Assembly (NCBI GenBank): GCA_004557905.1
Contig: SFFH01000001.1
Location: 83,623 to 147,622 of the forward strand
Reading direction: 5' to 3'
Length of the DNA stretch: 64,000 bases
DNA from: Clostridiales bacterium
Lineage (GTDB): Bacteria; Bacillota; Clostridia; Christensenellales; Aristaeellaceae
Positions within the stretch are counted from its first letter, which is position 1. Every line of letters begins with the position of its first letter. The translations under genes were made by a program, and so were the position numbers. Positions 5,270 through 45,863 of this stretch are shown here, piece after piece. A model generated the notes under the pieces. It did no database searches and was not told the DNA's origin. It worked only from the letters and a program-made list of their open reading frames with translations.

Positions 5270-6127
5270 TCAGAGCTGCACCTGACCGGCGACGGCCGCG
5301 GCGGCGTCCGCCATCAGCGGATTGTCCACGGTCTCGATCAGGCCCGCGTCGCACAGGGCGGCGGCGGTGGGATCAAACGGCAGCTGCGCGAGCACCGGCA
5401 GGCCCAGCTGCGCGGCCTCCTCGGCGATGCGGGACTTGCCGAAGAGCTCGATCTTCTTGCCGCAGTCCGGGCAGAGGGCATAAGCCATGTTTTCCACCAG
5501 GCCCAGCACCGGGATGTTCATCATGCCGGCCATGTTGACGGCCTTGCGCACGATCATGCCGACCAGATCCTGTGGAGTGGAGACGACCACCACGCCGCTG
5601 AGCGGAATGCTCTGGAACACGGTCAGCGGCACGTCGCCGGTTCCCGGAGGCATGTCGATCACCATCACGTCCAGCTCGCCCCAGAAGACCTCCTCCCAGA
5701 ACTGCTTGACCGCGCCGGCGATGACCGGGCCGCGCCAGATGACGGGGGAATCGTCGTTTTCCAGCAGCAGGTTGATGCTCATGACCTTGACGCCGGTGTC
5801 CGTCTCGGCGGGGTAGATGTACTCGCCGTCGCCCATGGCCTTCTCCGTGATGCCGAACATCTTGGGGATGGACGGGCCGGTGATGTCGGCGTCCAGCACG
5901 CCGACGCGGTAGCCCATGCGCGAGAGCATGACGGCTAGCTCGCCGGCGACCAGCGACTTGCCCACGCCGCCCTTGCCGCTGACCACGCCGATGACCTTGC
6001 GCACCTTCGGCTGCGGCTTGGGCGCTTCCTCTTCGGGCGCTGCGTTCTTGTTATGGCTGCATCCGGCGCAGGCGGGCTTGGTGCCGCACTCGCTGGGCGC
6101 GCAGCCCTGGTTCAGTTCCTCAGACAC
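5270..6127 (-). CDS. Mrp/NBP35 (ApbC-type) Fe-S cluster carrier ATPase
   Basis: 'GKGGVGKS' deviant Walker A, a 'CPDCG' motif and an N-terminal Cys-rich stretch. GTG start follows AAAGGAG. The 724-aa track ORF is an upstream artefact. Confidence 0.9.
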   Translation of the reverse strand: MSEELNQGCAPSECGTKPACAGCSHNKNAAPEEEAPKPQPKVRKVIGVVSGKGGVGKSLVAGELAVMLSRMGYRVGVLDADITGPSIPKMFGITEKAMGDGEYIYPAETDTGVKVMSINLLLENDDSPVIWRGPVIAGAVKQFWEEVFWGELDVMVIDMPPGTGDVPLTVFQSIPLSGVVVVSTPQDLVGMIVRKAVNMAGMMNIPVLGLVENMAYALCPDCGKKIELFGKSRIAEEAAQLGLPVLAQLPFDPTAAALCDAGLIETVDNPLMADAAAAVAGQVQL

Positions 6128-6247
6128 GGAAATTACTCCTTTCGATCGGGCCCAAACTCTGCTATAATGATCAGGAGATGGGTTTTGCCCGAGAGATACG
6201 TCTAATATGATAACACGATTCAGAAAAAATGCAAGGGTGCGTGGAGA

Positions 6248-8158: not shown

Positions 8159-9619
8159 ATGAGCACCCTTCAGGATCTCAATCAGGTGCTCTCACGCAAG
8201 CAGGACATTCTTGAGAATGCTGTGGGCGTTGAGAAGATCAAGAAGAGCGGCAAGCTCACCGCGCGCGAGCGCGTGAATCTGCTGCTGGACGACGGCAGCT
8301 TCATGGAGCAGGCGATGCTTCAGAGCGACGCCGGCGTCGTGACGGGCTCCGGCACGGTGGATGGCCGCCCGGTGTACGTGGTCGCGCAGGATTTCGCCGT
8401 GATGGACGGCGCCGTCGGCGCGAAGCAGGCGAAGAAGATCGTCAAGGTTCTCAAGCTGGCCCGCAAGACCGGCACCCCGGTCGTGCTGATGGCCGACAGC
8501 AACGGCGCGCGCGTGGGCGAGGGCGCGGCTGCGCTTGAGGCGTATACCGATATCTTCGCACACATGGCCCGTCTCTCCGGCGTGGTGCCGATGATCGCGA
8601 TGGTTCTCGGTCCGTGCGTCGGCGCTGCGGCGATGATGGCGGAGCTGTCCGACCTGGTGATCGTGGCCAAGGAGGGCGCGCTGCTGTGCGCCGGCCCGCA
8701 GGTCCTCTCCGCGACCATGGGCAAGGACGTCATGAAGGCGACCGAGCTGGGCGGCGCGAAGATCGCCGTGGAGAACGGCGCCGCGCACTTTGCCTGCGAT
8801 ACCGAGGAAGAGGCCGTGGCCACCGCCAGGAAGCTGCTGGGCGTGCTGCCGGCCAACAACCTCGAGGATGCGCCCTTCTCCGCCGAGGAGGACATGAACC
8901 GCGCACTGACCGGTCTTGCCGCGGGCGCGGACGGCATGGACGTCATCAATGCGATGGCTGACGCCGGTTCCGTGATCGAAGCCGGCAAGGGCTACACCGG
9001 CGCCGCGACGGCCTTCGGCAAGCTGGCCGGCCGCACCGTGGCGTTCGTCTACACCGGCAAGGGCGACACCTGCGACAAGCGCATGCAGAAGATCGCCCGC
9101 TTCGTCCGCTTCGCGGATTGCTACAACATCCCGGTCGTGTCCCTGATCGACTCCACCGGCCTTGAGCTCTTCAAGACCGTCGACCGTCAGCTGAACGTCG
9201 TCAAGGCCGCCTCCAAGCTGGTCTACGCGTACAGCGAGGCCACCACCGTGAAGGTGTCCGTGGTGATCGGCAACGCCATTGGCGCGGCTTACGTCGCCAT
9301 GGGCGGCAGCGCCAACGCCGATGCGACCTACGCCTGGCCGGGCACCTGCATCAGCCCGCTGACCGGCGAAGCCGCGATTGCGATCTGGGGCAAGGACGAC
9401 ATCAAGAACAGCAAGGGCGATGCGGTTGCCGCGCGCAAGGAGCTGGCTGCCAGGTATGAGGCCGAGGTTGCCGACGGCGTGAATGCCGCGATCGAAGGCC
9501 TGGTCGACGACGTCATCGATCCGGCCGACACCCGCAAGATGGTGATCGCCGCGCTGGAGCTGATGAGCAGCAAGCGCGATTCCAACCCGCCCAAGAAGCA
9601 CGGCAACATGCCGCTGTAA
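8159..9619 (+). CDS. Acyl-CoA carboxyltransferase (12S-type; methylmalonyl-CoA / glutaconyl-CoA decarboxylase alpha-like)
   Basis: N-terminus 'KIKKSGKLTARERVNLLLDDGSF'. The overall layout is the duplicated crotonase-like carboxyltransferase fold. Confidence 0.85.
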   Translation: MSTLQDLNQVLSRKQDILENAVGVEKIKKSGKLTARERVNLLLDDGSFMEQAMLQSDAGVVTGSGTVDGRPVYVVAQDFAVMDGAVGAKQAKKIVKVLKLARKTGTPVVLMADSNGARVGEGAAALEAYTDIFAHMARLSGVVPMIAMVLGPCVGAAAMMAELSDLVIVAKEGALLCAGPQVLSATMGKDVMKATELGGAKIAVENGAAHFACDTEEEAVATARKLLGVLPANNLEDAPFSAEEDMNRALTGLAAGADGMDVINAMADAGSVIEAGKGYTGAATAFGKLAGRTVAFVYTGKGDTCDKRMQKIARFVRFADCYNIPVVSLIDSTGLELFKTVDRQLNVVKAASKLVYAYSEATTVKVSVVIGNAIGAAYVAMGGSANADATYAWPGTCISPLTGEAAIAIWGKDDIKNSKGDAVAARKELAARYEAEVADGVNAAIEGLVDDVIDPADTRKMVIAALELMSSKRDSNPPKKHGNMPL

Positions 9620-9637
9620 TCAGGGGAGGATAAAGAC

Positions 9638-10015
9638 ATGTTTTCGATTCTGACTTATGGTCTGTCCGTTGCCGTCGTCGGCATGGCGACCGTTTTCTGC
9701 GGCCTGATCATTCTCATCGGCTTCATCAAGGGCATGGAGAAGGTGCTGCCGAAGATCGCCGCCCGCGATTTCAGCTTCAAGAAGGCCGATGCGCCGAAAA
9801 GCGACGCGCCGACCATCGTGATTGAAACCGCCAACGTCGGCGACGACGCGATTGTGGCCGCGATCTCCGCGGCGATCACCACGGTCCTCGAGGAGGAAGT
9901 GAAGGCCGATCCGGCCAAGGCGAAGAGCACCTTCGTCGTTCGCTCCATCCGCCGCATGGGCACCCCGGCGTGGAACCGCGCCGGCCGCGAGGAGCAGGTT
10001 TACTCCCGTCTCTGA
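9638..10015 (+). CDS. OadG-like small membrane subunit of the Na+-translocating decarboxylase
   Basis: Single N-terminal TM helix 'LSVAVVGMATVFCGLIILIGFI' plus its position inside the decarboxylase operon. Confidence 0.7.
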   Translation: MFSILTYGLSVAVVGMATVFCGLIILIGFIKGMEKVLPKIAARDFSFKKADAPKSDAPTIVIETANVGDDAIVAAISAAITTVLEEEVKADPAKAKSTFVVRSIRRMGTPAWNRAGREEQVYSRL

Positions 10016-10101
10016 TCTGAATCCGATAGGATTCCGACAAGCTGTAGCTTCATTTCAAACCAACAAACCAAACGAGAAGATTATTGAGGAGGATATCCAT
10101 T

Positions 10102-10527
10102 ATGCGTAATTTTGTCATTACCGTGAACGGTGCTCAGTATCAGGTTGCTGTTGAAGAAGTTGCTCCGGGCGCTGCCCCGGTCGTCGCCGCTCCGGCGCCC
10201 GCCCCGGCCCCGGCTCCGGTTGCCGCTCCGGCGCCTGTCGCTGCTCCCGCTCCGGCCCCGGCTCCGGCTCCGGCCGCTGCTCCTGCCCCGAAGGCTGCCG
10301 CGCCCGTTGCCGGCGGTCAGAAGGTGAATGCGCCGATGCCGGGCAACATCCTCGACGTGAAGGTTGCCGCCGGCCAGACCGTGAAGCAGGGCGATTGCCT
10401 GGTCATCCTCGAGGCCATGAAGATGGAGAACGAGATCCCGGCGCCGTGCGCGGGCAAGGTCGCTCAGGTCGTCGTCGCCAAGGGCGCGACCGTCAACACC
10501 GGCGACGTGCTGGTCGTGATCGAGTAA
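10102..10527 (+). CDS. Biotin carboxyl carrier protein (1.3S-type)
   Basis: Biotinylation motif '[10 protein letters not shown]' and a long Ala-Pro linker. ATG at 10102 lies 9 nt after GAGGAGG (the track gives a TTG at 10084). Confidence 0.9.
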
Positions 10528-36501: not shown

Positions 36502-36586
<85 letters not shown>

Positions 36587-37325: not shown

Positions 37326-38972
37326 TCAGTTGTGCTCCTGCGTCAGCGCCTTCAGCCTGGCGGTGAGCAGCACGTTCTCCCGGTAATCGATCGGGCAGTC
37401 GATGACGGCGGGCACGTCCTGAGAAAACGCGTCCTCCAGAATGGGCATCAGGTCGTCCGCGCGCTCGACGCGATAGCCCTTACAGCCCATGCTTTCGGCC
37501 AGCATCACGAAATCCGGGTTCGTGAAGCTGGTCATGTTCGTGTGGCCGAAGCGGTCGTTCTGCTTCCACTGGATCAGTCCGTAAGCGCTGTCGTTGAAGA
37601 TCAGGGTGACAAAGGGAAGACCCTCCCGGCGCGCGGTTTCCAGCTCCTGGCAGTTCATCATGAAGCCGCCGTCGCCGGTGACGGCCAGAATGCGCTTGTC
37701 GGGGTGCACCAGCTTGGCAGCCAGCGCGCCGGGCACGGCGATACCCATCGTCGCAAAGCCGTTGGAGATGAGGCAGGACCGCGGCTCGTCGCAGGGATAA
37801 TGCCGGGCAATCCACATCTTGTGCGCGCCGACGTCGCTGAGCAGGATGTCGCCGGGGCCCATGATCCGGCGAATGTCGCTGAGCACGCGCTGGGGCTTGA
37901 GGGGATAGCCGTCGTCACCTGCAAATCCGGCAAACTCGTCGAGCATGCGCGCGCGCAGCGCGAAGGCCATCTCCGGCTCCTGGATGCGGACGGTCAGCTG
38001 GGCGAGGTGTCGCAGCGTTTCGGCCATGTCGCCGATCACCTCGATGGCCGGCGGATAGCACCGGTTGACGTGCGCCGCTGTGCTGCTGACGTGGATGATC
38101 GTCTTGTCCTGCCGGGGGTCCAGGCGGGCGGGGGAAAGCTCCACGATGTCATAGCCGACGCACAGAAGGAGGTCGGCCTGCTCCAGCAGCAGGTCCTGAT
38201 AATCCCGCTGCGGAATGCCGATGGTGCCCATGGCGTAGGGATCGTCGCTGCGGATGACGCCCTTGGCCATCATGGTGTTGACCACCGGCAGATGCGCGGC
38301 GTGCGCCAGCTCCGTGATCTCGGCGGCGATGTCGCCCCTGGCGGCGTCCGCGCCGACCAGCATGACAGGGCATTTGGCGCGCGCCAGCAGCTTGGCCGCC
38401 TGGGCGATGGTCTCCAGATCGGCGTATTCCGGGCGGCTGTTCTGGGGAATCATGGGCTTCATGTTCTCCGGCACATCCATGCGCGCCACGTCCACGGGCA
38501 GGTCGATGAGCGTCGCGCCCATCTTGCCGTCCCGCTGGGCGTATTTGAAGGCGAGCCGAACGATTTCCGTGATGCTGTCCGGCCGCATGACCAGCTTGGT
38601 CCGCTTGGTGATTGGCTCAAAGAGCTTGTTCAGATCCAGATACTGATGGCCGGTGATGTGCATTCTCTCCGTGGAGACCTGCCCCGTGATGGCCACCAGC
38701 GGTGCGCCGTCCGAATTGGCGTCCGCCACGCCGGTGATCAGGTTCGTCGCACCGGGGCCGAGCGTGGCCAGGCAGACGCCGGCCTTTCCCGTCAGCCGGC
38801 CGTATACATCCGCCATAAACGCGGCGCCCTGCTCGTGACGGGTGGTGATGAAGCGGATGGGCGAGGCGGCCAGCGCCTCGATGATCTCCAGATTCTCCTC
38901 GCCGGGAATGCCGAATACGACCTCCACACCCTCTGCGGCGAGGCACTCAACCAGTTTCTGGGCAACGTTCAT
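37326..38972 (-). CDS. Thiamine-pyrophosphate enzyme, acetolactate synthase (AlsS/IlvB)-like
   Basis: 'VFGIPGEENL', 'TRHEQGAAFMADVYGRLTGK', 'GDGGFMMN' TPP motif. ATG follows GGGAGGA. The 975-aa track ORF is an upstream artefact. Confidence 0.85.
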   Translation of the reverse strand: MNVAQKLVECLAAEGVEVVFGIPGEENLEIIEALAASPIRFITTRHEQGAAFMADVYGRLTGKAGVCLATLGPGATNLITGVADANSDGAPLVAITGQVSTERMHITGHQYLDLNKLFEPITKRTKLVMRPDSITEIVRLAFKYAQRDGKMGATLIDLPVDVARMDVPENMKPMIPQNSRPEYADLETIAQAAKLLARAKCPVMLVGADAARGDIAAEITELAHAAHLPVVNTMMAKGVIRSDDPYAMGTIGIPQRDYQDLLLEQADLLLCVGYDIVELSPARLDPRQDKTIIHVSSTAAHVNRCYPPAIEVIGDMAETLRHLAQLTVRIQEPEMAFALRARMLDEFAGFAGDDGYPLKPQRVLSDIRRIMGPGDILLSDVGAHKMWIARHYPCDEPRSCLISNGFATMGIAVPGALAAKLVHPDKRILAVTGDGGFMMNCQELETARREGLPFVTLIFNDSAYGLIQWKQNDRFGHTNMTSFTNPDFVMLAESMGCKGYRVERADDLMPILEDAFSQDVPAVIDCPIDYRENVLLTARLKALTQEHN

Positions 38973-39182
38973 GCCGATTCCTCCCATATGAAAGAAGGCG
39001 GGCAGAACCCGTACGTGGGTACCGCTCGCCATTGAACAGAAACAGTATACTCCGGTATTGGAAAATGTCAAGGGTGTCGTTTCATTCTGACAAATTATTC
39101 GGCATAATTCCGCTGTGAATATGCAGAAAATAAGGAAAAAGTACAAAAATAGAAAATATTCCGGCATAATAGGAAAACAAAC

Positions 39183-39211
39183 TTGCAAATAAACAGGCGC
39201 TATGCTATTAT
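39183..39211 (+). promoter_or_regulatory. Sigma-A promoter of the ATP-grasp operon
   Basis: TTGCAA, 17 nt, TATTAT. A 5'-UTR hairpin (39221-39257, gatgcgccg/cggcgcatc) follows and abuts the RBS. Confidence 0.55.
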
Positions 39212-39266
39212 GTCTTTTATGCAGTGATCCGATGCGCCGCTTCGGCGCATCACTTGCCAAGGAGGA

Positions 39267-40595
39267 ATGACCGTGCCGGATACCAGAGAGCTCACCAAGC
39301 ACACAGAGGAGATCAACGAGCTGCTTGCCCGATATGGGGTCAAGTTCGGCCTGTACAAGCAAGGCGTTTTCAAGGAGCAGCTGTTCCCGTTTGACGCCAT
39401 TCCCCGGATCATCAGCGCGGAGGACTTTGCCGGGCTGGAGAGGGGACTCAAGCAGCGCGTGATGGCGCTCAACTGCTTCATCGCCGATATCTATGGCGAA
39501 AAGAAGATCATCCGCGACAAGGTGGTGCCGGAGGAGTTTGTGTTTGACAGCCCGGGCTATCTGGCCCAGTGCGAGGGCACGAAGCTGCCCAAGGGTGTCT
39601 GGTCGCACATCTCCGGCATCGATCTGGTGCAGGCGAAGGATGGCGGCTGGTTCATCCTGGAGGACAACCTGCGCGTGCCCTCCGGCGCGTCCTATCCGAT
39701 GATCGCCCGGGAGCTGTGCCGCCGGGCCAGCCCGCGCACGTTCCAGGCCTGCGGCGTGGCGGACAACCGGGACTATGCGGCCCTGCTGCGCTCCGCCATG
39801 GACCATGTGAACACCGGCGGCTGCACGGTGATCCTCACGCCGGGCCGGTACAATGCCGCGTATTTTGAGCACTCCTATCTGGCGGAAAAGACGGGCGCGC
39901 ACCTGGTGACCGGCAGCGAGCTGACCGTGGAGGACGGCTTCCTGTGGTTCAACGGCTACGACGGACGCAAGGAGCGCGTCGGCACCGTGTACCGCCGCAT
40001 CTCCGACGACTACCTGGACCCGATGAGCTTCCGCGCCGATTCGCTGATCGGCATTCCGCACCTGTACGAGGTGTTCCGCCGGGGCAACGTAGCGCTGATG
40101 AACGCGCCCGGCAACGGCGTGGCGGACGACAAGGGCATCTACTACTTTGTGCCCCGCATGATCCGCTACTATCTGGGCGAGGAGCCTGTGCTGCACAACG
40201 CTCCGACCTATCTGCCCTATTACGAGCAGGACATGCGGTATGTGCTCGAGCACTTTGACACGCTCGTGCTCAAGGACGTGGCGGAGGCCGGCGGCTACGG
40301 CGTGGTGTTCGGCAGCAAGATGACGAAGCAGCAGAAGGCGGACTTCATCGCGCTGCTGAAGAAGGAGCCGCGCCGCTTCATCGCGCAGGAGGTCATCGAC
40401 TTCCGCGACCTTAACATCATGGAGGGCGGCGAGGCGGTGCCGCGCAAGGCGGATCTTCGCGCCTTTGTGCTGATGGGCGAGGAGCCCATGGTCTGGAAGA
40501 GCGGCCTGACCCGCTTCTCGCGCAACCCGGATTCCTTTATCGTCAACAGCTCACAGGGAGGAGGCTTCAAGGACACATGGGTATTGTCTCATTGA
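39267..40595 (+). CDS. Circularly permuted type-2 ATP-grasp protein (DUF404/DUF407-like amidoligase)
   Basis: Overall similarity to the CP-ATP-grasp family as remembered ('GIDLV...DG.W.ILEDNLRVPSG', 'NAPGNGVADDK'). The start may be GTG 39273, 7 nt after GGAGG. Confidence 0.7.
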   Translation: MTVPDTRELTKHTEEINELLARYGVKFGLYKQGVFKEQLFPFDAIPRIISAEDFAGLERGLKQRVMALNCFIADIYGEKKIIRDKVVPEEFVFDSPGYLAQCEGTKLPKGVWSHISGIDLVQAKDGGWFILEDNLRVPSGASYPMIARELCRRASPRTFQACGVADNRDYAALLRSAMDHVNTGGCTVILTPGRYNAAYFEHSYLAEKTGAHLVTGSELTVEDGFLWFNGYDGRKERVGTVYRRISDDYLDPMSFRADSLIGIPHLYEVFRRGNVALMNAPGNGVADDKGIYYFVPRMIRYYLGEEPVLHNAPTYLPYYEQDMRYVLEHFDTLVLKDVAEAGGYGVVFGSKMTKQQKADFIALLKKEPRRFIAQEVIDFRDLNIMEGGEAVPRKADLRAFVLMGEEPMVWKSGLTRFSRNPDSFIVNSSQGGGFKDTWVLSH

Positions 40596-41245
40596 CCAAC
40601 ACGGACAAGCTCTACTGGCTGGGCCGGTACAGCGAGCGCGTCTACACCACCATCCGCCTGTTCGGCGAGAGCTTTGATCATCTGATCGAGGGCGAGGTGC
40701 AGAGCATCGGCGCGTTTTGCGCCTCGCTGAACATCCCCAATCTCTACACGTCGGGCGACGACTTCGTGGAGCGGTATCTGTTTGACGCGGAGAACCCGGA
40801 CTCTGTCTTCGCCAATCTGACCCGCGCGTATGACAACGCGATGACGCTGCGCGAGGAGATCGGCAGCGAATGCGTCAGCTACATTCAGCTGGCTATCTAC
40901 GCGATGAACAGCCTGCGCGGCAGTGAGAACCCAATGTTCGGCCTGCAGAAGGTGGTTGACGACATTCTGGCGTTCTGGGGGCTGTCGGATGACATCATCC
41001 CGGACGAGAACGTGCGCAACATCATCAAGGTCGGCAAGCGCGTGGAGCGTCTGGATCTGTATGCCCGGCTGAAGCTGCCAAAGAAGGACATCCTGCGCGA
41101 GGTCAGAAGGCTGGCGGTGCGCATCAGCCGGACCAACCTTCAGTACGCGCAGGCGGACATTGACCGGCTGATGGCCCTGGCCACGGCCGGGGAGACGGCG
41201 TATGACGAGATCGTCACGCTGGTGGATGGTCTGGTGAAAATCTGA
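40577..41245 (+). CDS. Alpha-E domain protein (short form)
   Basis: 'YWLGRYSERV' N-terminal signature and an all-helical composition. It overlaps the ATP-grasp gene by 19 nt. Confidence 0.65.
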   Translation: MGIVSLTNTDKLYWLGRYSERVYTTIRLFGESFDHLIEGEVQSIGAFCASLNIPNLYTSGDDFVERYLFDAENPDSVFANLTRAYDNAMTLREEIGSECVSYIQLAIYAMNSLRGSENPMFGLQKVVDDILAFWGLSDDIIPDENVRNIIKVGKRVERLDLYARLKLPKKDILREVRRLAVRISRTNLQYAQADIDRLMALATAGETAYDEIVTLVDGLVKI

Positions 41246-41261
41246 CGAGACGAGGTGCTCA

Positions 41262-42080
41262 ATGAGGAGACTGGCGTTTTCGTTCCGGCTGCGGCTTGAT
41301 TTCTCCGCGCCTGTTCAGAAGCATCATTATACGCTGCGCTGCCTGCCGGCCGATGCGCCGCATCAGCGCGTGCTGTCCGCTGCCCTGCGCGTGGAGCCTG
41401 AAAGCCGGGCTGTCACGTCCGCAGACGCATGCGGACGGTTCGACTTTGGCTGTATTGCCCCGGCGCATACCGGCTTTGAGGCGCTGGCGGAGGGCTGTGT
41501 GCTCTCCGCGCTGGAGGAAGGCGAGACGGCTGCGCCGGACTGGCAGCTTGGCCCGTATCGCATGTTCACGCCGCTGACGGCGCCCGGGCCGTCCATCCGC
41601 CGACTGAACGAAGAGCTTGCCGCCGGCACCCAGGTCGACACGCTGGCGGCCGGCATCATGGAGCTGCTGCGCGACCGCTTTGTCTACCTGCCGGGCAGCA
41701 CGCATGCGCTGACCACAGCCGAGGAGGCGGCTGTGGCCCTGCGCGGGGTCTGTCAGGACGAGAGCCACATCATGCTCTCGCTGCTGCGCCTGCGCGGCGT
41801 GCCCTGCCGCTACGCCGTGGGCTACATGCTGGGTGAGGGCTCGACCCATGCGTGGGTCGAGCTGTTGCATGAGGGCAGGTGGATCGGGCTGGACCCGACC
41901 AACCATCGCGCGGTCGGCGACGAATACATCCGGGTGTCCGTCGGCCGGGACGCCGGCGACTGCCCCGTCAACCGCGGCGTATTCTTTGGCGGCGCATCGC
42001 AGGTCAGCGAAAGCACCGTGCGCGTCTGGGAAGCACAGTCGCCGGACGGAAGCACGGAAATGAGGAGAGAGCGGAAATGA
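41262..42080 (+). CDS. Transglutaminase-like cysteine peptidase family protein
   Basis: Cys-His-Asp triad context 'GVCQDESH..', 'STHAWVE', 'GLDPTN'. An N-terminal Bact_transglu_N-like region is present. Confidence 0.8.
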   Translation: MRRLAFSFRLRLDFSAPVQKHHYTLRCLPADAPHQRVLSAALRVEPESRAVTSADACGRFDFGCIAPAHTGFEALAEGCVLSALEEGETAAPDWQLGPYRMFTPLTAPGPSIRRLNEELAAGTQVDTLAAGIMELLRDRFVYLPGSTHALTTAEEAAVALRGVCQDESHIMLSLLRLRGVPCRYAVGYMLGEGSTHAWVELLHEGRWIGLDPTNHRAVGDEYIRVSVGRDAGDCPVNRGVFFGGASQVSESTVRVWEAQSPDGSTEMRRERK

Positions 42081-43045
42081 TCGAGATTGTCACGCAGGTC
42101 GGCTTGCCCGTGGACGAGCGGCTCTGCATCAAAAAGAACCGCCTGCAGCCGGCGGACGACGGCAACGGACGGCGCATCAGCGTCATCACCGGCATCCACG
42201 GCGACGAGCTGGAGGGGCAGTATGTCTGCTGGCGGGTGCAGCAGCGCATCGGCGAGCACCCGGAATGCCTGCGGGGCACGGTGGACATCTATCCCGCCAT
42301 GAATCCGTTTGGCATCGACTCGGTCACGCGGGGCATTCCGGCCTTTGATCTGGATATGAACCGCATCTTTCCCGGCAGCGTGGACGGCGACATGAACGAG
42401 TACATCGCCGCGCAGATCATCGAGGACATTTCGGGAAGCGATCTGGCGCTGGACATTCACGCCTCCAACATCTATCTGACCGAGATCCCGCAGATCCGCA
42501 TCAACGAAATCAGCGCGCAGCGGCTTGTGCCCCTGGCGCAGAAGGCCAATGTGGACTTTGTGTGGGTGCACGGCGCGTCCACCGTGCTGGAATCGACCCT
42601 GGCCTACAGCCTCAACAGCTGGGGCGTGGACACGCTTGTGGTCGAGATGGGCGTGGGCATGCGCATCACCCGCAGCTACGGCGAGCAGCTGACGGACGGC
42701 ATCTTTAACCTGATGCGCGAGCTGGGCATCTGGACGGGCGAGGTGCAGACGACGCATACGCCCATCGTGTCCGGCATCCCGGACGAGGTGGAGTTTCTGA
42801 ACGCGCCGGTTTCCGGCGTGTTTGTCAAGTCGGTTTCCCACGGCGCGCTGCTGAAGCCCGGCGATGAGATCGGGCTGATCGTGGACCCGCTGCAGGGCAA
42901 GGTGCTTGACCGGGTGGTCTCGCCCTGCGAGGGCTGGCTGTTCACCGTGCGGGAATATCCCATGGTGGATCAGGGCTCGCTGATGGCCCGCATTCTGAAG
43001 GGACATATGGAAGAGGCGGCCCGGAAGGGAGGCGCGGCGCAATGA
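42077..43045 (+). CDS. AstE/AspA-family (succinylglutamate desuccinylase/aspartoacylase, M14-like) Zn deacylase
   Basis: 'GIHGDELEG', 'DMNRIFPG', 'LDIHAS'. ATGA start/stop overlap with the transglutaminase gene. Confidence 0.8.
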   Translation: MIEIVTQVGLPVDERLCIKKNRLQPADDGNGRRISVITGIHGDELEGQYVCWRVQQRIGEHPECLRGTVDIYPAMNPFGIDSVTRGIPAFDLDMNRIFPGSVDGDMNEYIAAQIIEDISGSDLALDIHASNIYLTEIPQIRINEISAQRLVPLAQKANVDFVWVHGASTVLESTLAYSLNSWGVDTLVVEMGVGMRITRSYGEQLTDGIFNLMRELGIWTGEVQTTHTPIVSGIPDEVEFLNAPVSGVFVKSVSHGALLKPGDEIGLIVDPLQGKVLDRVVSPCEGWLFTVREYPMVDQGSLMARILKGHMEEAARKGGAAQ

Positions 43046-43974
43046 AAAAGGAAGTGCTCTATGAGATCAAGGCGATCTACCGCGACGACTTCCGCGTGAC
43101 CGGCTATACCTTCGGCGAGGGCGAAAAGGCCCTGTGCATCGTCGGCAGCATGCGCGGCAACGAGAATCAGCAGCTGTACTGCTGCTCCCGGCTGGTGGCC
43201 AGGCTCAGGCAGCTGGAGGAGGAGGGCAGGCTGATCCCGGGCAAGCAGATTCTGGTGATTCCCTGCGCCAATCCCTATTCCATCAACACGAAGAAGCGCT
43301 TCTGGTGTACGGACAACACCGACATCAACCGCATGTTTCCGGGCTATGCGCTGGGCGAGACGACGCAGCGCATCGCGGCGGGCGTGTTTGAGGCCATCAA
43401 GGGCTGGCAGTACGGCATACAGTTTGCATCCTTTTATATGCCGGGCACCTTCGTTCCGCACATCCGCATGATGGACACGGGCTATCAGGACACGGAGCTG
43501 GCGTGCGAGTTTGGCCTGCCCTACGTCGTGGTGCAGAAGCCCCGGCCCTTTGACACCGCGACGCTCAACTACAACTGGCAGATCTGGGGCACGCACGCCT
43601 TCTCGCTCTACACGACCAACACGGCGCGGGTGGACGAGGAGAGCGCGCAGCAGGCGGAGAACGCGGTGCTGAGCTTCATGGCCAGGCGGCGTCTGATCAA
43701 TCATCATCCCCACGGCGGCTATCGCTCCGAGGTGATCCGCTCCGCGGACTTTGTCAGCGTCCGCGCGACTTGCTCCGGCTTTTTGCAGTGCCTGGTCCGG
43801 CCGGGACAGCGCGTTAGGCAGGATACGCTGCTGGCGCGCATCTTGGACCCCTATGAGGGCTGCGTCCGCGCGGAGCTGAGGGCGCCCATCCCGGGCGTGA
43901 TCGCTTTTGCCGGCGACGAGCCCATGGTCTATGAGAACACCGCCGTGCTCAAGCTGATCCGCGAAGAGGCGTAA
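43042..43974 (+). CDS. AstE/AspA-family paralog lacking the Zn-binding histidines (probable pseudoenzyme)
   Basis: 'GSMRGNENQ' and 'IQFASF' replace the HxxE and H motifs. 'DINRMFPG' is retained. ATGA overlap with the previous gene. Confidence 0.7.
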   Translation: MKKEVLYEIKAIYRDDFRVTGYTFGEGEKALCIVGSMRGNENQQLYCCSRLVARLRQLEEEGRLIPGKQILVIPCANPYSINTKKRFWCTDNTDINRMFPGYALGETTQRIAAGVFEAIKGWQYGIQFASFYMPGTFVPHIRMMDTGYQDTELACEFGLPYVVVQKPRPFDTATLNYNWQIWGTHAFSLYTTNTARVDEESAQQAENAVLSFMARRRLINHHPHGGYRSEVIRSADFVSVRATCSGFLQCLVRPGQRVRQDTLLARILDPYEGCVRAELRAPIPGVIAFAGDEPMVYENTAVLKLIREEA

Positions 43975-44000
43975 GCGCCTGCAAAAACTGCAAACAAATC

Positions 44001-44041
44001 AGAGGCTTTCCCGCAGCACTGCGAGGGACGGCCTCTTTTTT
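44001..44041 (+). terminator. Terminator of the ATP-grasp operon
   Basis: agaggc..(inner ccgcag/ctgcga)..gcctct followed by tttttt. Confidence 0.65.
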
Positions 44042-44127: not shown

Positions 44128-44583
44128 ATGAAAAGATTGCTGCTGATGTCCGCACTGATCCTGCTGGCGCTGTGCCTGATTGCCGGACGATGCGGGCCGC
44201 ATGAGGCGCGCGCGGAGACGACCGTGCACCTGACATGCGCCGGCGACGTGACGCTGGGCAGCGAGGAGGCGGTGCGGACAAAGGGCTATTCGCTGGAGAA
44301 TTTCTGCTTCGGCGGGAACAGGAACGTGCGCGCGATGGAATCGCTCGTCGCCGTGGCGGAGCTAAAATTTGCGGACGACGGGACGTACCTGAGCCAGCAG
44401 ATCACGCTCTATCCGGCGCACATCTCCGGTACGCAGCCGCGCAGCAATTATCAGCCGCACCTGGTCACGGGAAAGGACGCCGCGCGCGTCATGCGGCGCG
44501 TTCAGGCGGACACGCGGTTTGCGCTCAATCCCGTCGACGAGGCGACGGGCGCGGCGGTGCAGGAAACGCAGAGGGCGAACTAA
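44128..44583 (+). CDS. Secreted CapA/PGA_cap-family remnant (internally deleted)
   Basis: A signal peptide is followed by 'LTCAGDVTLG' (a CapA N-terminal motif). This is followed almost directly by 'GYSLENFCFGG' and a CapA-like C-terminus. The metallophosphatase core of about 200 aa is missing. Confidence 0.5.
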   Translation: MKRLLLMSALILLALCLIAGRCGPHEARAETTVHLTCAGDVTLGSEEAVRTKGYSLENFCFGGNRNVRAMESLVAVAELKFADDGTYLSQQITLYPAHISGTQPRSNYQPHLVTGKDAARVMRRVQADTRFALNPVDEATGAAVQETQRAN

Positions 44584-44624: not shown

Positions 44625-45863
44625 TTGAAAAGCGGCAAGAACAAAAGGGCACGGCATGCCAGGCTTGATATGGAGTACGTGGTCTATCCGACGACGGTAT
44701 GCGTGGTTTTGCTGGTGGTCGCCACGTTTACGGGGATGTGGATCACAGGAGAGAACCCCTATCGCTCGTATGCACTGCAAGCCTGCGCCTGGCTGGAGGG
44801 GCGCCTGGATTTGGGCATGGATTATCCCTGGCTGGAGCTTGCTATCTTTGAGGGCAAGTATTACGTCAGCTTTCCGCCGTTCCCTTCGTTCGTGCTCCTT
44901 CCATTTGCGGTGGTTTGCGGCGCCGATACGCCGGATCACGCCCTTTCTGTCCTGTTTACGGTTGTCGGCGTCGTCTATGCGCTCAGGTTGTACAAGATGA
45001 AAACGGGTGGCTTTGACCATGCCGGGCAATATGTCCTTTTCCTGTTTCTGGGCAACGGGTATTTGTTCATCGCTATGCAGGGCTGGGTATGGTTTTTGGC
45101 GCAATGTATGTGTTTTACGATGTCACTCATGGCGCTGTATTACGCCGAACGCGGGCGGGGCGGAGGTTCGCTGGCCTGCTGGGCGTGTGCGGTCGGGTGC
45201 CGGCCGATGGTTGTCGTGTATTTCCCGCTGCTGCTGCTGATCCTGCTTCGGCATGGACGCGAGCAGACAGGCATGCGCGCCATCACGCTGATTCGCTCGA
45301 AATGGTATTGGGCGGTTCCGGCGTTTTGCATAGTCAGTGTGTACATGATTCTCAATGCTGCGCGGTTTGGGAATCCGCTTGAATTCGGGCACAGCTATTT
45401 GCCGGAATTTATGCGGGTAGAGGAGGGACAGTTCAGCCTCAGCTATTTGCGAAAGAATCTAAGCCAGCTTCTCCGCCTTCCCCAAATGGGCGGCGAGCAT
45501 GGGGCCCTCGTGTATGACACCTATGACTGCATGGCGTTTTGGCTGATCGCCCCCATCTTTATCCTGTTCTTCTATGCGTGGGCATGCAGCCTTTGCTTTA
45601 AGCATAGGCCATATGGCGCGGAGATCGCGGTAATACCGCTTACGCTGCTTGCGCATCTTCTCATCGTCTGCTGTCACAGGACGCTGGGGGGATATCAGTT
45701 TGGAAATCGATATTTGGTCGATATGTTGCCCTACGTATTCTATGGGGTGCTGCTGCTGAAGCCGGGGAGTGAGCGGTTTTCTCTGTGGAGCATGCCCTTA
45801 TGCGCGATGGGATTTTCGATCAATCTGATAGGCACTGTCGCCACCTACAATCATTGGATTTAG
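44625..45863 (+). CDS. GT-C fold (ArnT/PMT-like) membrane glycosyltransferase
   Basis: Polytopic, with 'EGKYYVSFPPFPSFVLLP'. TTG start at 44625 after GAAGGGG; an alternative ATG lies at 44670. Confidence 0.6.
   Translation: MKSGKNKRARHARLDMEYVVYPTTVCVVLLVVATFTGMWITGENPYRSYALQACAWLEGRLDLGMDYPWLELAIFEGKYYVSFPPFPSFVLLPFAVVCGADTPDHALSVLFTVVGVVYALRLYKMKTGGFDHAGQYVLFLFLGNGYLFIAMQGWVWFLAQCMCFTMSLMALYYAERGRGGGSLACWACAVGCRPMVVVYFPLLLLILLRHGREQTGMRAITLIRSKWYWAVPAFCIVSVYMILNAARFGNPLEFGHSYLPEFMRVEEGQFSLSYLRKNLSQLLRLPQMGGEHGALVYDTYDCMAFWLIAPIFILFFYAWACSLCFKHRPYGAEIAVIPLTLLAHLLIVCCHRTLGGYQFGNRYLVDMLPYVFYGVLLLKPGSERFSLWSMPLCAMGFSINLIGTVATYNHWI

Follow-up and report, generated by a model that had tools for sequence, protein, structure and literature searches.

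Introduction

Operons in which a circularly permuted ATP-grasp protein is encoded together with an Alpha-E protein and a transglutaminase-like protein, in some cases with the Ntn-hydrolase Anbu as well, were reportedly predicted by Iyer, Abhiman, Burroughs and Aravind in 2009. The system class, which spans Proteobacteria, Cyanobacteria, mycobacteria and Clostridia, is still without a defined product. Considered here is a variant found in a 64,000-nucleotide stretch of contig SFFH01000001.1 from a Clostridiales bacterium of the Aristaeellaceae (the window, i.e., the whole stretch of DNA analyzed), in which the same three genes are followed by two genes encoding paralogous proteins of the AstE/AspA deacylase family, termed deacylase A and deacylase B. 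As characterised members of this family cleave small N-acyl amino acids or iso-dipeptides, its addition narrows the chemistry to be expected of the system.

In papers citing Iyer et al. 2009, a prediction of peptide tagging or peptide synthesis is credited to that study, with the system itself being addressed in the course of Anbu work in Yersinia and Pseudomonas (PMC6376114, PMC5666114). The Anbu papers of 2017 left hypotheses on the system unconfirmed, and release of phosphate from ATP by the Yersinia ATP-grasp homolog is the only activity reported (PMC6376114). The proteobacterial operon responds to nitrogen limitation (PMC6376114, PMC5666114, PMC5491218), the cluster in Burkholderia lying within the NtrC regulon (PMC5491218). 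In a 2026 Mycobacterium tuberculosis preprint, Rv2411c and Rv2567 appear only as negative controls, with tests of gamma-aminobutyric acid (GABA)-trehalose synthesis being negative. The literature searched, which did not cover Iyer et al. 2009, offered no function or product for the system, as had been anticipated when the window was first read from its sequence alone (the original prediction), and no report joining the deacylase family to the ATP-grasp/Alpha-E/transglutaminase triad. When the NCBI product names of these proteins were sought, only passing mentions in three unrelated papers were found. A paper on Klebsiella CfmP was considered as a lead but set aside as irrelevant, since it concerns a TupA-like ATP-grasp protein.

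Other described systems offer points of comparison. In glutathionylspermidine synthetase/amidase, what an ATP-grasp-type ligase joins is split again by its partner, a papain-like Cys amidase. In the deacylase family, AstE and aspartoacylase (ASPA) act on small N-acyl amino acids. In cyanophycin metabolism, the polymer is made by the ATP-grasp-containing CphA1 and cut by the cyanophycinase CphB, after which CphZ hydrolyses the final iso-dipeptide. DoeB and CphZ act on small N-acyl amino acids or iso-dipeptides, CphZ being a beta-Asp-Arg hydrolase (for CphZ, PMC9974463). CphZ is a dimer in which Glu E251 is essential, the E251A version still binds substrate (7.6 uM), and an R/N/R triad binds the C-terminal carboxylate (PMC9974463).

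When compared with the Anbu-type operon, the window presents the same first three genes in the same order, but with an active and an inactive AstE/AspA M14 protein in the place of Anbu. Indeed, Anbu was not found as the fourth gene, given that genes 4 and 5 both match AstE_AspA_cat and no other gene is conserved beside the cassette. Moreover, the window Alpha-E protein, unlike that of the Anbu-type operon, is truncated (~222 aa, matching profile positions 7-165 of 294), the operon is carried by anaerobic Clostridia rather than by Proteobacteria or Cyanobacteria, and NtrC/sigma-54 signals were not found 5' of the orthologous operons of gut bacteria (the gut clade). What sets the variant apart from the known system is that an active M14 protein and its pseudoenzyme paralog stand where Anbu would be and, in the gut clade, that the Alpha-E protein is truncated. 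As for the other systems, the Cys enzyme of glutathionylspermidine synthetase/amidase is a CHAP protein, whereas that of the window is transglutaminase-like and is accompanied by an Alpha-E partner and two extra M14 proteins. No homolog of CphA or CphB is encoded in the cassette. Finally, DoeB/EutE, AstE and aspartoacylase share their Pfam family and two-domain fold with deacylase A, yet are found in an entirely different genomic context.

The five genes form a translationally coupled operon

Pfam profile searches assigned each of the five proteins (Table 1) to the family given in the original prediction, namely, CP_ATPgrasp_2 (7e-138) and CP_ATPgrasp_1 (4e-124) for gene 1, Alpha-E (1.4e-21) for gene 2, Transglut_core (2.3e-14) and Bact_transglu_N (5e-8) for gene 3, and AstE_AspA_cat for genes 4 (1e-21) and 5 (2.6e-10). 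Direct reading of the junctions revealed a 19-nt overlap of genes 1 and 2 (40577-40595), a 16-nt gap between genes 2 and 3, and ATGA overlaps joining genes 3 and 4 (42077-42080) and genes 4 and 5 (43042-43045). A GGAGG-like Shine-Dalgarno sequence precedes every one of the five starts. The overlaps, together with a terminator (-29.8 kcal/mol; z = -3.4), had been described earlier and are present. The five genes are translationally coupled and have been co-inherited as a unit.

Table 1. Features of the window and, in the last row, of orthologous loci (position 1 is the first nucleotide of the window or locus).
Feature	Position	Strand	Basis
Gene 1, circularly permuted ATP-grasp amidoligase, 442 aa	39267-40595	+	Open reading frame (ORF) and Pfam
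Gene 2, short Alpha-E protein, 222 aa	40577-41245	+	ORF and Pfam
Gene 3, transglutaminase-like Cys-His-Asp protein (Bact_transglu_N and Transglut_core), 272 aa	41262-42080	+	ORF and Pfam
Gene 4, deacylase A, AstE/AspA-type M14 zinc hydrolase, 322 aa	42077-43045	+	ORF and Pfam
Gene 5, deacylase B, paralog of A, 310 aa	43042-43974	+	ORF and Pfam
Sigma-70-type promoter-like site TTGCAA-17-TATTAT, TG upstream	39183-39211	+	9/12 matches
5' leader hairpin, ending just 5' of Shine-Dalgarno AGGAGG (39260-39265)	39221-39257	+	Fold
Intrinsic terminator, GC-rich hairpin (44001-44036) then TTTTTT	44001-44041	+	Fold
151-aa ORF, CapA-like relic	44128-44583	+	Homologs of 70-78% identity carry PF09587
Thiamine-pyrophosphate enzyme gene, divergent, upstream of the operon	37326-38972	-	
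Near-consensus promoter-like site TTGACA-16-TATACT	39044-39071	-	11/12 matches; towards thiamine-pyrophosphate enzyme gene
tRNA gene	36502-36583	+	Sole Rfam match in the 64-kb window
397-aa multi-pass membrane protein	44670-45863	+	No Pfam match
Peptidase_C26/GATase gene 3' of deacylase B, environmental loci	L116 8900-9604; L123 8893-9582; also L102, L110, L112, L119, L131		

The promoter-like site and leader hairpin of the original prediction are present too. The promoter-like site is found at the expected place, 56 nt 5' of the gene 1 start codon, but such sites were no more frequent in a scan than expected by chance (2 found, as opposed to 2.2 expected in shuffled sequences). Support for the site comes from this position and from a similar -35 region ('aaacttgca') in the close relatives L007 and L008 (L followed by a number designates a locus). 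The leader hairpin is likewise present (-21.3 kcal/mol; z = -2.2), does not include a T-run, and is lineage-specific, as it is not conserved in L007 and L008, the closest relatives, and the leader hairpin of most orthologous operons is another one, which resembles a terminator. As AGGAGG is only 1 nt from the annotated ATG (39267) but 7 nt from a GTG (39273), the true start of gene 1 may be the latter, two codons downstream.

In L064, L027, L016, L004, L067, L068, L072 and approximately 25 further gut-clade loci, the terminator-like leader hairpin (rrCAAAGGCG...CGCCTTTTTT) is located 14-60 nt 5' of the gene 1 start codon. It comprises a consensus stem of 14 bp, 8 pairs of which show compensatory changes, followed by a T-run, and lies 3' of a TTGACA-17-TATAAT-like promoter, inside the 5' leader and a few nt past the likely transcription start. 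In four loci, it occurs twice, in tandem. The hairpin has no matching Rfam family and is absent from the window (39212-39266) and from L007-L009. It may serve as an attenuator or as a 5' stabiliser.

Regulatory sequences were also sought. Rfam searches of the window and nine orthologous loci at the gathering threshold returned tRNAs only, with no riboswitch or known leader, while consensus boxes for TnrA/GlnR, sigma-54, CodY and NtcA were no commoner 5' of gene 1 in 64 loci than in shuffled sequence. Horizontal acquisition of the cassette in this genome was considered and rejected, given that its GC content (0.635) matches that of the window (0.624).

The operon is conserved as a unit in gut bacteria

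Relatives of deacylase A with identities of ~65-90% occur in Aristaeellaceae, Oscillospirales and many Lachnospiraceae. When one genome per species was scanned, a relative was detected in at least 537 genomes, mostly of gut bacteria. Among the matches listed, the closest was from a Candidatus Ventricola sp. (91%). Roseburia, Blautia, Fusicatenibacter and Butyricicoccus are among the gut commensals of humans and animals that carry the operon. Three relatives that were looked up presented the same five genes, surrounded by entirely different neighbours.

Co-conservation was assessed in the best 80 loci by searches with the five window proteins. All five genes were found in the same order in every locus that extends far enough, and at full length in 64 of 64 informative gut-clade loci; incomplete loci were cut by contig ends. 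Genes 1 and 2 share their 19-nt overlap in 65 of 66 loci, with an overlap of genes 4 and 5 being seen in 63 of 81. Identities to the window proteins, averaging 77, 55, 39, 68 and 60% for genes 1-5, correlate across loci (r = 0.81-0.93). The five genes are, as such, a real operon conserved as a unit. The unity claimed earlier thus holds wherever the sequence allows it to be assessed, and the deacylase genes are not the poorly co-conserved neighbours that they might have been. Clustering of flanking ORFs in gut-clade loci disclosed no other generally conserved gene, including no precursor peptide, target or tag gene, transporter or regulator.

Individual loci carry additional genes in or next to the cassette. 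In one Lachnospiraceae metagenome-assembled genome, genes for citrate synthase and NADP-isocitrate dehydrogenase lie between the Alpha-E and transglutaminase genes on the same strand (L046, 3514-6141), while in L049, an isocitrate dehydrogenase gene (8907-10115) begins 37 nt 3' of deacylase B. Besides L046, the isocitrate dehydrogenase gene family appears in the cassette flanks of approximately four loci, mostly downstream, such that these genes are found in or beside the cassette in about five loci. A link to 2-oxoglutarate and glutamate supply is possible. In L034, a membrane protein fusing FUSC_2/ArAE_1 to HAD Hydrolase_3 is encoded 15 nt 3' of deacylase B (8879-10171); with nine further loci, a FUSC/ArAE-type membrane protein adjoins the cassette in 10 gut-clade loci in all.

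Deacylase A retains the catalytic residues that deacylase B has lost

The window had been described as encoding an active and a degenerate deacylase, a distinction upheld upon examination of key positions. Deacylase A contains the complete catalytic set, namely, the zinc ligands H41, E44 and H128 and the general base E190, along with a clamp for a C-terminal carboxylate (R85, N95 and R96). This full set is kept across the gut clade and in 72 of 77 distant A-type relatives, the remaining five differing only at R96, where M replaces R. Deacylase B, which aligned to deacylase A with a probability of 100% and 22% identity in a profile-profile alignment (hhalign), contains R38 and A129 in place of two zinc His and Y190 in place of the catalytic Glu, substitutions (H to R, H to A and E to Y) that are conserved across the family. 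At the same time, E41, the R86/N96/R97 clamp and the fold are retained, and 77 of 310 residues are invariant.

In terms of key residues, the pattern of deacylase B is R-E-R-N-R-[A/T/P]-Y in the gut clade. In the environmental clade described below, it is H-E-R-N-R-H-[Q/R], such that the zinc ligands persist without the catalytic Glu, and in a clade without the transglutaminase gene, S-H-K-N-M-E-V. The general base is absent in nearly all loci, the sole exception being L166 (TAADVEL), an anomalous environmental locus with changes at most of the remaining key positions as well. From these residues, deacylase B is predicted to be a conserved pseudoenzyme, in the fold family but not an active enzyme of it. 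A heterodimer of A with a ligand-binding but non-cleaving B is supported, although not proved, by the findings that CphZ is dimeric and that its E251A version still binds substrate.

An AlphaFold2 model of deacylase A (predicted local distance difference test score, pLDDT, of 80) includes the C-terminal domain of the family. In Foldseek searches, the best full-length structural match of this model was DoeB (6twm; template modelling score, TM, of 0.79). CphZ (8ein) was matched with an E-value of 1e-17 and 13-15% identity, and several structural-genomics entries labelled 'succinylglutamate desuccinylase/aspartoacylase' were also close, whereas M14 carboxypeptidases such as CCP5 were weaker matches (rank 46), far below DoeB and CphZ. 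Deacylase A and CphZ share the H-E-H zinc site, the catalytic Glu and the R/N/R carboxylate clamp. Still, with its 13-15% identity, deacylase A falls short of the criteria for CphZ (>30% identity and >70% coverage, along with the Asp/Arg-binding residues; PMC9974463), and CphZ, unlike A/B, is a homodimer without a pseudoenzyme partner. No NCBIfam equivalog reached its cut-off, with gene 4 scoring 52.7 bits against DoeB/EutE TIGR02994 (cut-off 402.7) and not matching AstE TIGR03242 or PRK05324, and gene 5 scoring 16.6-20.1 bits against the latter two (cut-offs 305 and 170). Deacylase A as an ortholog of DoeB, AstE or CphZ was accordingly rejected by the criteria of those families themselves.

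The ATP-grasp, Alpha-E and transglutaminase-like proteins

The ATP-grasp protein is the most conserved of the five, with 245 of 442 residues being invariant in 69 orthologs. It matches PDB entry 3n6x (1e-109), an uncharacterised structural-genomics protein deposited as a 'putative glutathionylspermidine synthase'; in the Pfam search at E <= 0.01, no GSP_synth match was listed. The transglutaminase-like protein, which matches PDB entry 3isr (1e-11), is the fastest-evolving of the five (33-78% identity across loci), and its GVCQD, HAW.E and DPT motifs, with the Cys, His and Asp residues that they include, show at least 97% conservation in 76 sequences. As judged from their sequences, the ATP-grasp protein, the transglutaminase-like protein and deacylase A all keep their catalytic residues.

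The Alpha-E match of gene 2 covers only the profile positions given above, and the short length noted in the original prediction proved to be general, as Alpha-E proteins of the gut clade comprise 220-231 aa throughout. The motifs WLGRY.ER and GKR.ER, including E20-R21 and E157-R158, are invariant. An AlphaFold2 model (pLDDT 90.8) is all-alpha; a Foldseek search of the PDB with this model returned no significant match (best E-value 0.57) and hence no functional lead. L107 and L155 encode ATP-grasp and Alpha-E as a single fusion protein, and the overlap of the separate genes is conserved elsewhere, both of which suggest that the two proteins work as a complex. In L011 (Butyricicoccus pullicaecorum ET57), the Alpha-E ORF comprises just 97 aa (5911-6204) and the ATP-grasp match is shortened, such that the cassette may be decaying in that strain or the assembly may be in error. 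No protein of the five matched PADLOC anti-phage defence models.

Distant relatives and other architectures

A search of representatives of 50%-identity clusters revealed full-length relatives of deacylase A at 27-46% identity, among them Heliobacterium and Gloeobacter proteins. Metagenomes were then scanned with an alignment of such distant relatives, and the loci obtained were scored with hidden Markov models built from the five gut-clade families. In an environmental clade (contigs of 55-69% GC), the order is again ATP-grasp, Alpha-E, transglutaminase, A-like and B-like, with the deacylase being ~43% identical to that of the window and the Alpha-E protein being of full length (319 aa, profile positions 1-294). 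In L107, genes for a transglutaminase-DUF2126 protein, a CP_ATPgrasp_2-Alpha-E fusion and a transglutaminase precede the A-like/B-like pair. This is the fused form of the same system that we take the Rv2566-Rv2569c region of Mycobacterium tuberculosis to represent; by comparison, the window proteins are separate and smaller, and include no DUF2126 amidoligase. In a low-GC clade, ATP-grasp, short Alpha-E and the pair follow one another with no transglutaminase between (L137, L140, L145, L147, L148, L150, L155 and L165). Lastly, in L144 and in L153/L157-L160, the A/B pair is found with no triad within 7 kb.

The pair co-occurs with the triad in Clostridia, but the association is not specific to them, and in a few loci the pair stands without an adjacent triad. 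The five-gene architecture is wider than Clostridia, and the A/B pair, being found with several forms of the system and also alone, is a recurrent accessory of the whole system class, yet separable from it.

Other genes were noted in these loci. Reading of the pair-only sequences suggested an ABC-transporter pair alongside in one species group and a LysR-type regulator in another. In 7 of 26 environmental loci (Table 1), a Peptidase_C26/GATase (class-I glutamine amidotransferase) gene lies directly 3' of deacylase B, at a distance of -3 to +13 nt; all seven belong to the sub-clade in which the B pattern is H-E-R-N-R-H-R.

Possible function of the operon

We regard it as an evenly balanced question whether this variant of the ATP-grasp/Alpha-E/transglutaminase system is a self-contained module for making and dismantling an amide. 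In such a module, the five co-transcribed genes would act together in the cytoplasm. ATP-grasp, complexed with Alpha-E, would couple a carboxylate with an amine at the expense of ATP, the most plausible product being an amino-acid or gamma-glutamyl/beta-aspartyl-type amide or short oligomer (or an isopeptide). The transglutaminase-like Cys-His-Asp enzyme would cleave or transfer this product, and the last step would fall to an A/B heterodimer, which would take the C-terminal amino acid off a small N-acyl-amino-acid or iso-dipeptide fragment, with deacylase B binding ligand without cleaving it. The M14 pair would thereby fill the hydrolase slot held by the Ntn-hydrolase Anbu in proteobacterial operons. 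The nearest analogue would appear to be cyanophycin metabolism with CphZ, to which the proposed scheme runs parallel. As to the nature of the amide, circumstantial evidence for a make-and-trim cycle of a gamma-glutamyl or aspartyl amide, as originally proposed, comes from the fold likeness of deacylase A to CphZ and from the Peptidase_C26/GATase gene, with that gene and the citrate synthase/isocitrate dehydrogenase context offering weak hints of glutamate or gamma-glutamyl chemistry.

Several observations weigh against a self-contained make-and-dismantle module. The pair-only loci (L144 and L153/L157-L160) imply that the pair can work or be kept independently, while the clade lacking the transglutaminase gene means that the parts list is not fixed. 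Since neither nitrogen-regulator boxes nor a riboswitch were found 5' of gut-clade operons, any link to nitrogen limitation is borrowed from Proteobacteria. Moreover, the literature reports ATP hydrolysis only, with no stable complexes among Anbu-operon proteins (PMC6376114). A broader version is more tentative and in our view rather doubtful, namely, that gut Clostridia (several hundred species genomes) and unrelated environmental bacteria build and dismantle a cytoplasmic amide-linked compound, with the dead deacylase being the ligand-holding subunit of a heteromeric M14 enzyme and a cyanophycin-like reserve oligomer or a gamma-glutamyl/beta-aspartyl conjugate being the candidate compounds.

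Alternatively, the system could serve in protein tagging, with ATP-grasp/Alpha-E attaching an amino acid or short peptide tag (cf. RimK, TTLL and pupylation), the transglutaminase-like peptidase removing it and the M14 pair trimming it, as cytosolic carboxypeptidases do with polyglutamate. Peptide tagging or peptide synthesis is the prediction that papers citing Iyer et al. 2009 ascribe to that study, proteins are common targets of transglutaminase-fold enzymes, and CCP5-type M14 carboxypeptidases appear, at rank 46, among the weaker fold matches of deacylase A. Tagging is nonetheless doubtful, as the cassette has no conserved neighbour that could be a target or tag gene, the CCP-type matches are far poorer than those to DoeB or CphZ, and deacylase A is in the two-domain AstE/AspA branch, the characterised members of which act on small molecules, with the C-terminal domain being present in its model. 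In aspartoacylase, this domain blocks the access of polypeptides. A role in catabolism or salvage is fairly unlikely, whereby the transglutaminase-like enzyme and A/B would obtain nitrogen or carbon by degrading an N-acyl amino acid, iso-dipeptide or peptide, whether taken up or formed in the cell, and ATP-grasp/Alpha-E would act on a different molecule of the same pathway. In favour of such a role, the known relatives of deacylase A serve in catabolism (AstE, DoeB and, where a species makes no cyanophycin itself, CphZ), proteobacterial nitrogen-limitation regulons include the triad, and pair-only loci exist. Yet no transporter is consistently linked to the cassette, and in nearly all loci, across three architectures, the pair has been inherited together with an ATP-consuming ligase, which makes action of the pair on the product of the ligase the simpler explanation.

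It is improbable that the module produces an antibiotic, siderophore, signal peptide or other specialised metabolite for secretion, with the hydrolases serving in maturation or self-protection. Many peptide natural products are made by ATP-grasp ligases and the cassette does occur in unrelated genomic contexts, but the surroundings of the cassette include no conserved gene for a precursor peptide, an exporter or immunity, the FUSC/ArAE-type membrane protein being adjacent in 10 loci only, and inspection of the five sequences revealed no secretion signals. In addition, presence in at least 537 species genomes, a GC content matching that of the host and the strong correlation of divergence speak for a function of the housekeeping type with vertical inheritance. 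The notion that the deacylase genes have no functional relation to the triad that they adjoin, to which the pair-only loci might lend credence, is effectively refuted by the complete co-occurrence and order in all 64 informative gut-clade loci, by the conserved start/stop overlaps, and by the recurrence of the linkage both in distant clades and where proteins of the system are fused.

Should the make-and-dismantle module be real, finding out what the active deacylase cleaves would disclose the product of the entire system class, unsolved since 2009. To specialists, the architecture will be unsurprising, yet it is very widespread in gut bacteria and opens a concrete experimental route. Inactivation of deacylase A should allow an intermediate to accumulate, and the pseudoenzyme B may trap a ligand. 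As the operon is found in many abundant human and animal gut commensals, the answer would fill a gap in gut-microbe physiology.

Genomic surroundings

Upstream of the operon, the minus-strand promoter-like site listed in Table 1 points away from gene 1, such that the 39.0-39.27 kb spacer contains two divergent promoters. Downstream, the longer ORF of the 397-aa membrane protein, starting at 44235, presented only a weak NCBIfam match to the LA_3751/LA_3752 putative glycosyltransferase family (18 bits, cut-off 200). The 151-aa ORF had been described as an internally deleted CapA relic, an assignment borne out by comparison with its PF09587-bearing homologs. Its predicted product consists of a signal peptide and a CapA-like N-terminus (TCAGDVTLGS), followed directly by the C-terminal part of PGA_cap (NFCFGGN...), and as such reads as a CapA-like relic with an internal deletion.

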